Shown piece after piece: positions 46,704 through 53,002 of a stretch of 64,000 nucleotides of DNA. Positions within the stretch are counted from its first letter, which is position 1. The number at the start of each line of letters is the position of its first letter. The notes under the pieces are model-generated. The model did no database searches. It saw only the letters and a list, made by a program, of their open reading frames with translations, and was not told where the DNA came from. Source of the stretch: Eledone cirrhosa (taxonomy: Eukaryota); the NCBI GenBank assembly GCA_964016885.1, contig OZ024743.1:207948001-208012000 (forward strand), given 5' to 3'. The translations under genes were made by a program, and so were the position numbers.

Positions 46704-47117
46704 CATATATGTATATATATATATATATATATGTATATATATATATATATGTATATATATATATATATATGTATATATATATATATATATATGTATATAT
46801 ATATATATATATATATATATACATATATATATATATATATATATATTATATGTATATATATATATATATATATATGTATATATATATATATATATGTATA
46901 TATATATATATATATATATATATGTATATATATATATATATATATATACATATATATATATTATATATATATATATATGTATATATATATAGTATATATA
47001 TATGTATATATATATATATATATATATATGTATATATATATATATATATATACATATATATATATATACATATATATATATATATATATATATATATACA
47101 TATATATATATATATCA

Positions 47118-47169
47118 GAGATTCCTGATGATTTCTAATGAATGAACAGTTCTAGTCCTGTAGAATCTC
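47118..47169 (+). ncRNA. Type I hammerhead ribozyme, copy with GAAA->GAA deletion
   Basis: gagauuc-CUGAUGA-uuucuaaugaau-GAA-cag uucuaguc cug-UA-gaaucuc. Confidence 0.7.
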
Positions 47170-50100
47170 ATCTATATATATGTATATATATATATATATA
47201 TATGTTATATATATATATGTATATATATATATGTATATATATATGTATATATATATATATATATATATATATATATATATATATATACATATATACATAT
47301 ATATGTATACATATATATATATATATATATATATATCATATTATATATATATATATATATATATATATATATACATATATACATATATATGTATACATAT
47401 ATATATATATATATATATATACATATATATATATATATATATATATATATATATACATATATATATATATACATATATATATATATATACATATATATAT
47501 ATATATAACATATATATATATATATATACATATATATATATATATATATACATATATATATATATATATACATATATATATATATATACATATATATATA
47601 TATACATATATATATATATACATATATATATATATATATTATATAATACATATACATCTATATATATATATATATATGTAATATATATGTATATATATAT
47701 ATATATATATATGTATATATATATGTATATATATGTATATATATATATATATATATATATATATATATATGTATATATATGTATATATATATATATATGT
47801 ATATATATATATGTATATATATATATATATGTATATATTATTATATATATATATATGTATATATATATATATATGTATATATATGTATATATATATATGT
47901 ATATATATATATGTATATAATATATATATATATATGTATATATATATATATGTATATATATATATATATATGTATATATATATATATGTATGTATATATA
48001 TATATATATGTATATATATATATATATGTATATATATATATATATGTAATATATATATATTATATGTATATATATATATAATGTAATGTATATATATATA
48101 TGTATATATATATATATATGTATATTATATGTATATGTATATATATGTATATATATATATATATGTATATGTATATATATGTATATGTATATATATGTAT
48201 ATATATATATATATATGTATATGTATATATATGTATATGTATATATATGTATATATATATATATATGTATATATATATATATATGTATATGTATATATAT
48301 GTATATATATATATATATGTATATGTATATGTATATGTATATATATGTATATGTATATATATATATATATATATATATATGTATATATATATATATATAT
48401 ATATATATATGTATATATATATATGTATATATATATATGTATATATATATGTATATATATATATGTGTATATATATATATGTATATGTATAATATGTATA
48501 TATATATATGTATATATGTATATATATATATGTATATATATATGTATATATATATATATATATATGTATATATATATGTATATATGTATATGTATGTATA
48601 TATGTATATATATATATGTATATATATATATATGTATATATATATATTGTATTATATATGTATATATATATATGTATGTATATTATATGTATATATATAT
48701 ATGTATTATATATGTATATATATGTATGTATAATATGTATATATATATATATGTATGTATATATATGTATATATATATATGTATGTATATATATGTATGT
48801 ATATATATGTATGTATATATATGTATGTATATATATGTATGTATATATATGTATATATATATATATATGTATATATGTATATATATATATATATGTATAT
48901 ATATATATATGTATATATATATATATATATATATACATATATATGTATATATATATATGTATAATATATATGTATATATATATATGTATATATATATATA
49001 TAATATATATATGTATATATATATATATATATATATATATATATATATATATATATATATGTATATATATATATAGTATATATATATATATATATATATG
49101 TATATATATATAGTTATGTAAATATATATGTATATATATATGTATATATATATATGTATATATATATATATATATATATGTATATATATATGTATATGTA
49201 TAATATATATATGTATATATATATATATATATATGTATATATATATATATATATGTATATATATATATGTATATGTATATATATATATATATATATATAT
49301 GTATATATATATATGTATATATATATGTATATATATATATATATATATATATATATATGTATATATAAGTATATGTATATATATATATGTATATATATAT
49401 ATGTATATATATGTATATATATATATGTATATATATGTATATATATATATGTATATATATATATATATATATATATATGTATATGTATATATATATGTAT
49501 AAATATGTATATATATATAGTATATATATATATATATATATATGTATATATATATATATGTATATATATGTATATGTATATATATATATGTATATATATA
49601 TGTATATATATATGTATATGTAATATATATATGTATATATATGTATATTATATATGTATATGTATATTATATATATATGTATATATATATATATGTATAT
49701 ATATATATATGTATATATATATATATGTATATATATATATATGTATATATATATGTATATATATATATATGTATATATATATATATGTATGTATATATAT
49801 ATATGTATATATATATGTATATATATATATATGTATATATATATATGTATATATATATATGTATATATATATATGTATATATATATATGTATATATATGT
49901 ATATATATATGTATATATATATGTATATTATATATGTATATATATATATGTATATATATGTATATATATATAATATGTATATATATATATGTATATATAT
50001 CATATATATATATATATATGTATATATATATATATATAGTATATATATATATATGTATATATATATATATGTATATATATGTATATATATATATATGTAT

Positions 50101-51120
50101 ATATATATATATGTATATATATATATATATGTATATATATATATATGTATATAATGTATATGTATATATATATATATATGTATATATATGTTATATATGT
50201 ATATATATGTATATGTATATATATGTATATGTATATATATGTATATATATATGTATATGTATATATATATGTATATATATTTTATATATATATATATATA
50301 TATGTATATATAATATATATATGTATATATAATATATATGTATATATATATATATATGTATATATATATATATATATATATATATGTATATATATATATA
50401 TATATGTATATATATAGTATATATATATATTATATATGTATATATATATATATATATATATATGTATATATATATGTATATTATATATATGTATATATAT
50501 ATGTATATATATATATGTATATATGTATATATATATATATATATATATATGTATATATATATATATATATATGTATATATGTATATATATATATATGTAT
50601 ATATATATATGTATATATATATATATATATATATATATGTATATATATATGTATATATATATATATATATGTATATATATATATGTATATATATATATAT
50701 ATATATATATGTATATATATATGTATATATATATATGTATATATATATGTATATATATATATACAGATATATATACATATATATATATGTATATATATAT
50801 ATATATATATGTATATATATATATATATGTATATATATATATATATGTATATATATATATATATATATATGTATATATATATATTATATGTATATATATA
50901 TATATATATGTATATATATATATATATATATGTATATATATATATATATATATATACATATATATATATATATATATATATATATATGTATATATATATA
51001 TATATATATATGTATATATATATATATATATATATGTATATATATATATATATATAATACATATATATATATATACATATATATATATATATATATATAT
51101 ACATATATATATATATATCA

Positions 51121-51173
51121 GAGATTCCTGATGATTTCTAATGAATGAAACAGTTCTAGTCCTGTAGAATCTC
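51121..51173 (+). ncRNA. Type I hammerhead ribozyme (complete core)
   Basis: Stem I gagauuc/gaaucuc; CUGAUGA; stem II uuc/gaa; GAAA; stem III Acag/cugU; GUA site, cleavage predicted after 51166. Confidence 0.85.
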
Positions 51174-53002
51174 ATCTATATATATGTATATATATATATA
51201 TATATATATATATGTATATATATATATGTATATATATATATATATATATATATATGTATATATATATATGTATATATATATATGTATATATATATATATA
51301 TATATATATATATATATATATATATATATATAATAATATATATAATACATATATACATATATATGTATACATATATATATATATATATTTATATACATAT
51401 ATATATATATATATATATATAAATATATATATACATAACATATATATATATATACATATATATATATATAAATACATATATATATATATATACATATATA
51501 TATATATATATATACATATATATATATATATATATACATATATATATATATATATATACATATATATATATATATATACATATATATATATATATACATA
51601 TATATATATATACATATATATATATATATATATATATATACATATACATCTATATATATATATATATATGTATATATATGTATATATATATATATATAAA
51701 ATATATATATATATATATATATATATATATATATATATATATATATTATGTATATATATGTATATATGTATATATATGTATATATATGTATATATATATA
51801 TATATGTATATATATATATATATATATATATGTATATGTATATATATGTATATATATATATATATGTATATATATGTATATATATATATATATGTATATA
51901 TATATATATATATATATGTATATATATGTATATATATATATATATATGTATATATATATATATATATATATGTATATATATGTATATATATATATATATG
52001 TATATATATATATTATATATGTATGTATATATATGTATATATATATATATATGTATATATATATATATGTATATATGTATATGTATATATATGTATATAT
52101 ATATATATGTATATGTATATATATGTATATATATATATATGTATAGTATATATATATGTATATATATGTATATGTATATATATGTATATATATATATGTA
52201 TATTATATATAGATAGTATGTATATGTATATATATATGTATATATATATGTATATGTATATATATATGTATATGTATATGTATATGTATATGTTATATAT
52301 GTATATATATATATATATTTATATGTATATATATGTATATATATATATATATGTATATGTATATGTATATATATGTATATGTATATATATATATATATAT
52401 ATATATATGTATATATATATATATATATATATATGTATATATATATATGTATATATATATGTATATATATATATGTATATATATATATGTATATATATAT
52501 ATATATATATATATGTATATATGTATATATATATATGTATATATGTATATATATATATGTATATATATATGTATATATATATATATATATATGTATATAT
52601 ATATGTATATATATGTATGTATATATATGTATATATATATGTATGTATATATATGTATATATATGTATGTATATATATGTATATATATATATGTATGTAT
52701 ATATATGTATGTATATATATGTATGTATATATATGTATGTATATATATGTATGTATATATATGTATGTATATATATGTATATATATATATATATGTATAT
52801 ATATATATGTATGTATATATATATATGTATATATATGTATATATATGTATATATATGTATGTATATATATGTATATATATATATGTATATATGTATATAT
52901 ATATATATATATGTATATATATATATATATGTATATATATATGTATGTATGTATATATATATATGTATGTATGTATATATATATATGTATGTATATATAT
53001 AT

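Follow-up and report, generated by a model that had tools for sequence, protein, structure and literature searches.

Two hammerhead islands in an interrupted TA array

The window analyzed here, a 64,000-nucleotide (nt) stretch of contig OZ024743.1 from Eledone cirrhosa, contains two short hammerhead ribozyme islands embedded in a TA microsatellite array. Apart from one A missing in the first island and a few added bases at the 5' junctions, they are identical to the hammerhead segment in the pseudo-long terminal repeat (pLTR) of a Penelope-like element (PLE) of the same genome, referred to below as the parent element. The link to PLEs had already been drawn in a first-pass annotation made from the letters alone. 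The interrupted array spans approximately 46705 to 52998 and is bounded by the 5' end of a minus-strand long interspersed nuclear element (LINE) and by a tRNA-like repeat. The cores of both islands are on the plus strand, at 47125 and 51128, a separation of 4003 bp. The features of the locus are as follows.

47116-47173, plus strand: copy 1, a hammerhead-only stub of a PLE pLTR; 5' strand of stem I at 47118-47124, core from 47125, predicted cut at 47162/47163
51119-51177, plus strand: copy 2, a stub of the same type with an intact core from 51128 and a predicted cut at 51166/51167
51119-51121 and 47116-47118, plus strand: non-native 5' junction bases, the same letters in both copies, resembling the junctions of inverted pLTR insertions
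46705-47115, unstranded: TA array 5' of copy 1, with an interruption pattern like that of 50719-51118
47174-51118, unstranded: spacer of interrupted TA, 3945 nt, of which approximately 47174-49000 is homologous to 51178-52990
51178-52998, unstranded: TA array 3' of copy 2, the second copy of the duplicated flank, stopping at the tRNA-like repeat

Coordinates and fold bear out the earlier description of two same-strand type I hammerhead islands 4003 bp apart in a 6.3-kb array. Between 46709 and 52998 the islands are, as had been stated, the only complex sequence, except for a 13-nt noisy patch at 49111. The description of the array as pure TA had to be abandoned, since the spacer consists of 44% A, 49% T, 6% G, and 1% C. 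A family-model search of the window and 10 kb on either side revealed no family hammerheads beyond the two known copies, and no other parts of the parent element were found within the window. The islands are surrounded by C-punctuated blocks (47030-47660 and 50940-51650), each of which finishes with a six-base match to the 3' end of its own island. The rest of the array is G-punctuated, i.e., of opposite strand polarity.

Fold and core of the hammerheads

Copy 2 exhibits the core boxes, the U16.1-H17 site, and the three helices of a type I hammerhead, with helix I open. Stem I comprises 6 native bp and one pair made by the junction, U-U opens the 3-bp stem II, and the 4-bp stem III is closed by a loop of 8 nt. 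The hammerhead fold has an energy of -8.2 kcal/mol, compared to a minimum free energy of -8.5 kcal/mol; its stability did not exceed that of shuffled sequences (z of about 0.1). Positions 51122-51177 represent the commonest form of the family (153 of 258 arms examined). In copy 1 the G12-A15.1 run is one A short, a variant seen in 1 of the 258 arms, and because of this missing A the copy is predicted to be inactive. The missing A of GAAA, the U-U opening of stem II, and the 4-bp stem III were all noted correctly in the first-pass annotation. The 7-bp stem I that it reported is present in the islands, but only 6 bp are native. The seventh pair is supplied by the added 5' junction bases, which were not found in full-length elements, and a native stem I of 7 bp was rejected.

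At positions 10.1-11.1, U-U takes the place of the canonical purine-pyrimidine pair. The same opening occurs in many Hydra-clade hammerheads, where it is usual, and in other hammerhead families of this genome, and a reading of it as a sign of decay was rejected. Loci L002 to L128 harbor many unrelated hammerhead families, several with a U-U opening of stem II.

The suggested check of stem covariation gave no significant signal within the family. In 11 hand-picked variants, 97% of cells were paired and one pair was changed on both sides, and 31 of 500 shuffles reached values as high; most of the variation among these variants sits in loop II. Within the AU-rich flanks, formation probabilities were approximately 0.2 for stem I and 0.1 for stem III. 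Helix III is quasi-palindromic and able to pair between two copies, at -12.8 kcal/mol for the duplex compared to -1.4 kcal/mol for the hairpin. The proposed Infernal search with the Rfam hammerhead models yielded no hammerhead match at gathering score and none among the 150 listed of 207 matches at E<=10; none was among the 4 matches to 51114-51182 either. Rfam matches to microRNA and small nucleolar RNA models were dismissed as low-complexity noise.

The parent element

The parent frame, found between same-strand hammerhead pairs, has 758 codons, 713 of them from the first Met. It is complete in at least 17 loci (17 of the 150 listed matches to the end of the open reading frame [ORF], all 97-100% identical). 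This identity, together with the intact full frames, indicates that the family is young, and judging from these sequences an active enzyme is likely present in the genome. In full-frame copies the frame is also open for approximately 45 codons 5' of the first Met, from the hammerhead 3' strand through the tail (L076:2648-2782).

The single ORF encodes a reverse transcriptase followed by a C-terminal GIY-YIG domain, and its YRDD and IVY...YIG motifs were aligned with 11 relatives. The motifs RWR (RWK or RWR in relatives), DKT, YRDD, CNCLNKEAC (CxCX5C), GIY-YIG, CDLC (CxxC), and CMH (CxH) are common to relatives at 41-52% identity. CCHH was judged by eye to be absent. The domain call is based on motifs because a Pfam search returned GIY-YIG only at an E value of 0.18 and no reverse transcriptase match, a result that speaks against a clean assignment to the Hydra clade. 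A sequence search of the PDB with the parent protein gave one chance match only (E 0.58).

As in the Hydra clade, the hammerhead lies in a pLTR, insertions are tandem and inverted, and (TA)n is the target. The span between hammerheads, 4.7-6.3 kb in 16 loci, exceeds the length of less than 3 kb that is typical of that clade. The element is approximately double the usual size, which likewise tells against a clean assignment; it is long because of a TA/TG 3' untranslated region (UTR) of 1.7-3.3 kb. The parent is an abundant young PLE, likely of the Hydra clade by its motifs. The islands are real but ordinary, being stubs from a new family within a PLE clade that is already known.

Copies in the genome form a truncation series

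The 3.0-Gb assembly was searched for similarity to copy 2. Of the 881 candidates, 40 were scored and the 30 top loci were taken, a set biased to the junction of the query. In 25 of these 30 the hammerhead is an arm of a short palindrome in TA, in which an inverted pLTR of approximately 145 nt (hammerhead plus tail) abuts a hammerhead-only arm. In one further match just an inverted tail is present; the remaining four, which include the two window copies, are solo.

Exact patterns counted genome-wide gave 2114 copies that run on into the pLTR and 343 that stop directly in TA. Among the first 30 of the 343, an inverted hammerhead arm adjoins the hammerhead in 16 and an inverted tail in 3; 2 have TA on either side, 1 falls in none of these classes, and native upstream sequence was present in 6 (8 counting L095 and L104 by eye). 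Altogether, 27 were joined to other pLTR parts and 2 stood alone. The 3' ends of the first 30 of the 2114 fell after the full tail in 14 copies and within approximately 20 nt of the hammerhead in another 14, and 2 continued into the ORF; 11 extended upstream through the whole unique 3' region. Preferred 3' ends are located directly after the hammerhead, approximately 10 nt further, or at the end of the tail, and 5' ends are frequent at the base of stem I. The insertions lie in TA arrays, in agreement with the (TA)n targeting proposed earlier.

Solo copies elsewhere (L002, L031, L032, L105, and L106) have 5' junctions that are mostly unlike each other. By extrapolation from the sample of 30, they account for approximately 1% of exact arms. 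Since the sampled copies are mostly joined to pLTR parts, solo stubs mark the short end of a truncation series. The genome-wide search that had been suggested thus found the island sequence to be abundant, with a solo share that derives from 30 copies only. It leaves the idea of a stand-alone ribozyme-only element largely wrong, because 27 of the 30 sampled copies are tied to further parts of the pLTR and the family has a coding parent. Location of other copies in longer PLE terminal repeats is what the first-pass annotation had named as the mark of simple truncation.

Probable duplication of the stub with its flanks

Plain pairwise alignment of the flanks barely exceeded unrelated TA (353 versus 347), and interruption patterns were therefore compared instead, with uniqueness assessed on the examined loci. 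The 520 nt 3' of each copy gave an interruption score of 52.5, which was reached by none of 1000 shuffles; the best of 475 other TA-rich stretches scored 21.5. For the next 1.3 kb the score was 143 (0 of 200 shuffles as high). The similarity of about 500 bp after each island, from which a repeated unit rather than independent insertions had been deduced, was thereby confirmed and also extends upstream. Because the flank patterns are common to both copies, on both sides, and occur at no other tested locus, the window pair is most likely one stub doubled at the DNA level or in the assembly.

The array contains 83 phase breaks in 6000 nt, approximately 17 of them inside the islands, compared to 3 in 3000 nt and 2 in 1000 nt in nearby arrays. 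Contigs of runs X1 to X3 (depths of 41, 50, and 23) contain the A-less form of copy 1 intact, free of mismatches and gaps across 47119-47169; the runs represent one sample, possibly the source of the assembly. These contigs may derive from this copy, the other haplotype, another locus, or a recurrent error. Given its presence in contigs of three runs, the A-less form need not be a consensus error.

Plain local duplication accounts for same-strand pairs approximately 3 kb apart at two further loci: L128, where unrelated repeats are included, and L127, which lies beside an assembly gap. L127 carries three copies of the stub with its TA flank, the last two separated by a run of N, a possible false duplication. 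Besides a local duplication of 3078 bp, L128-L129 contains 467-bp tandem repeats in both orientations with a different hammerhead family (11 matches).

Comparison with known systems

Hydra-clade PLEs (Craig et al. 2021, PMC8557442), including Hydra-1_Obim of Octopus bimaculoides, served as the comparison system. Shared with the parent are the single ORF, the C-terminal GIY-YIG, and the RW(K/R), DKT, CxCX5C, CxxC, and CxH motifs, as well as the pLTR hammerhead, (TA)n targets, 5' truncation, partial tandems, and inverted arms. The U-U opening of stem II and the 4-bp stem III of the window copies are common in the File S2 list of that clade. The parent differs from Hydra-1_Obim in its hammerhead and in the start of its protein and is therefore a different family. 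The listed complete Hydra elements measure 2.1-2.7 kb, compared to 4.7-6.3 kb between hammerheads in the parent, and loop III has 1-3 nt in the Hydra-clade list versus 8 nt in the window family.

Metazoan minimal hammerheads (Cervera and De la Pena 2014, PMC4209133) are likewise of type I, located in pLTRs, and mostly solo or in close opposite-strand pairs derived from truncated PLEs. They share a palindromic helix III region suited to dimers and are weakly active, as predicted for the window copies: a single motif did not cleave, and dimers cleaved weakly. In their consensus, helix II is longer, with G10.1-C11.1, and helix III is nearly absent, whereas the window copies have a helix II of 3 bp opened by U-U and a helix III of 4 bp. 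Pairing of helix III between copies fits the dimer model.

Non-LTR retrozymes (Cervera and De la Pena 2020, PMC7229834; Li et al. 2026, 10.64898/2026.07.22.740005) resemble the window unit in having paired same-strand type I hammerheads around noncoding DNA, derived from PLE pLTRs. They differ in forming dispersed families of short, tandemly arranged monomers that have functional ribozymes and circular RNAs, whereas the window holds a unit that is locus-specific in the sample tested. Where a retrozyme would have short tandem monomers, each with its hammerhead intact, there is a 4003-bp unit in which the core of copy 1 is broken, and the flank scores given above (21.5 versus 52.5) revealed no dispersed family of this monomer among the examined loci.

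In shrimp Penelope (Yuan et al. 2021, PMC7878876), as in the parent, copies are young, terminal repeats are complete, and internal simple repeats were carried along by the element and lengthened afterward. That report presents two syntenic copies; in 22 of 23 copies of the parent, the repeat is a fixed and strand-biased component that makes up a third to half of the element, in addition to TA targeting.

Origin of the window pair

The best explanation, to which we assign a probability of roughly 0.6, is that the islands are the hammerhead segment of a PLE pLTR, inserted into the TA array as a 5'-truncated copy and doubled together with its flanks by unequal exchange within the array. Behind it stand the pLTR identity of the islands and a parent with reverse transcriptase and GIY-YIG, together with the insertions in (TA)n, the preference for several 3' ends, the frequent start of copies at stem I, and the shared flanks. 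In such a course of events the PLE endonuclease would nick (TA)n. Primed by the nick, reverse transcription would begin on RNA that had not been cleaved, in a TA-like stretch immediately 3' of the hammerhead, and would halt near the stem I hairpin after approximately 57 nt. A second, inverted arm would normally be made; this locus has just a few junction bases. Slipped or unequal recombination in the array would then yield the order stub-flank-stub-flank, and copy 1 would have lost one core A. The ribozyme of this locus would be a passenger; as a monomer surrounded by AU flanks that pair with themselves, it is predicted to be weak or inactive. In an anole PLE, the enzyme cuts both strands of AT-rich DNA and initiates reverse transcription at two internal sites; it uses unprocessed RNA, and hammerhead cleavage is dispensable in vitro (PMC11167929). 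Solo PLE hammerheads and TA targeting are already published.

Several observations weigh against truncation followed by unequal exchange. The priming site and the halt near stem I are deduced from copy ends. Flank similarity in the 400 nt upstream is weaker (score of 16; 6 of 1000 shuffles as high), and approximately 1.7 kb of spacer (49000-50700) has no counterpart after copy 2. L031 and L032 have the same 5' junction and could form a small propagated solo lineage. Outside the islands, phase breaks amount to approximately 11/kb, compared to 1-2/kb in neighboring arrays, which hints at a poor consensus. Moreover, real duplication and assembly mis-join yield the same structure. It is possible, but rather unlikely, that the chromosome carries a single stub and that two haplotypes, or noisy reads, were placed one after the other within the array during assembly. 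The confinement of the high phase-break rate to this array points that way, as do the tripled stub with flank beside a run of N at L127 and the layout LINE-flank-stub-flank-stub-flank-SINE (short interspersed nuclear element), which is the one expected from a mis-overlap. A mis-join fits less well with the intact A-less form in the contigs of X1 to X3, even if another haplotype, another locus, or recurrent error could account for it, and with repeat-length differences between the flanks that look older than read error.

The first-pass annotation also considered a retrozyme whose body is microsatellite. Here the 4-kb hammerhead-to-hammerhead unit would have been copied via RNA through read-through, dimeric cleavage, and the PLE enzyme. 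Although helix III could pair in a dimer, an active enzyme is likely present on sequence grounds, and the family does form tandem noncoding arrays with microsatellite (12 units of 1.03-1.11 kb at L069-L070), we regard this as improbable. The flank signature occurs at no other examined locus, the spacer differs in composition from the body of the parent and lacks all four of the anchors described below, the core of copy 1 is broken, stems I and III seldom form in the AU flanks, and published retrozyme monomers measure approximately 220-390 nt (PMC7229834). Still less credible is a minimal ribozyme-only nonautonomous element that moves as a unit of approximately 57 nt into (TA)n and landed here twice. 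Solo copies exist (2 of the 30 sampled, and also L002, L031, and L032), and head-to-tail hammerhead joints of approximately 78 nt occur in raw contigs. Yet such solo copies are few and their 5' junctions mostly unlike, as repeated truncation predicts, and had the stub landed twice independently, the flanks would not match on both sides.

Other sequences in the window

The LINE (43401-46704, minus strand; RVT_1 at E 1e-32) has an ORF split across two frames near 45866-45926, and its 5' end adjoins the TA array. The tRNA-like short repeat that closes the array, called by eye, is located at 53004-53240. A stub of another TA-associated repeat with an apparent 3' half of a hammerhead lies at 54810-54861; this repeat is also present at L005, L027, L044, and L128. 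Minisatellites occupy 8023-11272 (21 bp, 156 copies), 13441-15727 (31 bp, 74 copies), and 20905-22068 (27 bp, 42 copies).

Microsatellite and tandem units of the family

Examination of 23 ORF-bearing copies (17 full-frame and 6 others) revealed a TA/TG microsatellite in the 3' UTR of 22. The tract, 1715-3284 nt in length, lies between the ORF and the unique 3' region and is strand-biased, with approximately 50% T, 29% A, 19% G, and 1% C. It bears ordered anchors and was located as follows.

L076:4925-6945 and 21 other loci (L063, L065, and L107-L126 except L116), unstranded: 3' UTR TA/TG tract with ordered anchors

Four anchors were found in 13-20 of the 22 tracts, with their order preserved, from which it follows that the tract moves with the element and changes length. 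The window spacer, with 44% A, 49% T, and 6% G, contains none of the four. Because its composition differs and all anchors are missing, it is not the tract of the parent, and an origin as the parent's 3' UTR was ruled out. The earlier suggestion that TA arrays are amplified via RNA suits the parent, whose 3' UTR consists of kilobases of TA/TG, but is unsupported at this locus. We found no published description of a Hydra element with a kilobase microsatellite 3' UTR, in a survey for which most subscription journals and Repbase notes were outside coverage.

Raw contigs of X1 to X3, compared with L076:2520-2800 and window positions 47108-47181, contain joints from approximately L076:2660-2666 back to 2588-2593. 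These correspond to head-to-tail hammerhead monomers of approximately 76-80 nt; they lean toward the bolder of the earlier suggestions but are separate from the window pair. Run X1 holds at least 11 linker variants of the joints at depths of 47 to 1004, and other linkers occur in X1 to X3. The arrays of approximately 78 nt were not located in the assembly by a longer loop-variant search in which 40 of 351 candidates were scored and 12 loci were inspected. Published retrozyme monomers, at 220-390 nt, are far above this size (PMC7229834). At L069-L070 (G000:C1:83679000-83692200) there are 12 tandem units, 1027-1113 nt by L069, composed of hammerhead, tail, microsatellite, and unique 3' region, and the ORF is absent.

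We tentatively suggest, as a rather doubtful proposition, that this PLE family creates landing sites for itself: its targets are (TA)n, and with 1.7-3.3 kb of TA/TG in every full-length RNA, each jump would seed new ones. The pLTR may have shrunk into ribozyme-only tandems of approximately 78 nt, possibly the smallest retrozymes, with solo stubs such as those of the window as raw material.

The locus itself is retroelement debris of little importance, and the parent is notable only for the 2-3 kb of TA/TG repeat carried inside it. By a rough estimate, in which the 11 of 30 pLTR copies that reach the tract are scaled to 2114, the family carries approximately 1-2 Mb of TA/TG, less than 0.1% of the genome. 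Being young, with intact frames and two clear 3' ends, it is useful for asking how PLEs make inverted and tandem insertions in microsatellites, and it illustrates that long TA/TG tracts move by retrotransposition in a TA-rich animal genome. If the joints of approximately 78 nt are real and expressed, they would represent the birth of a retrozyme from a pLTR at minimal size.

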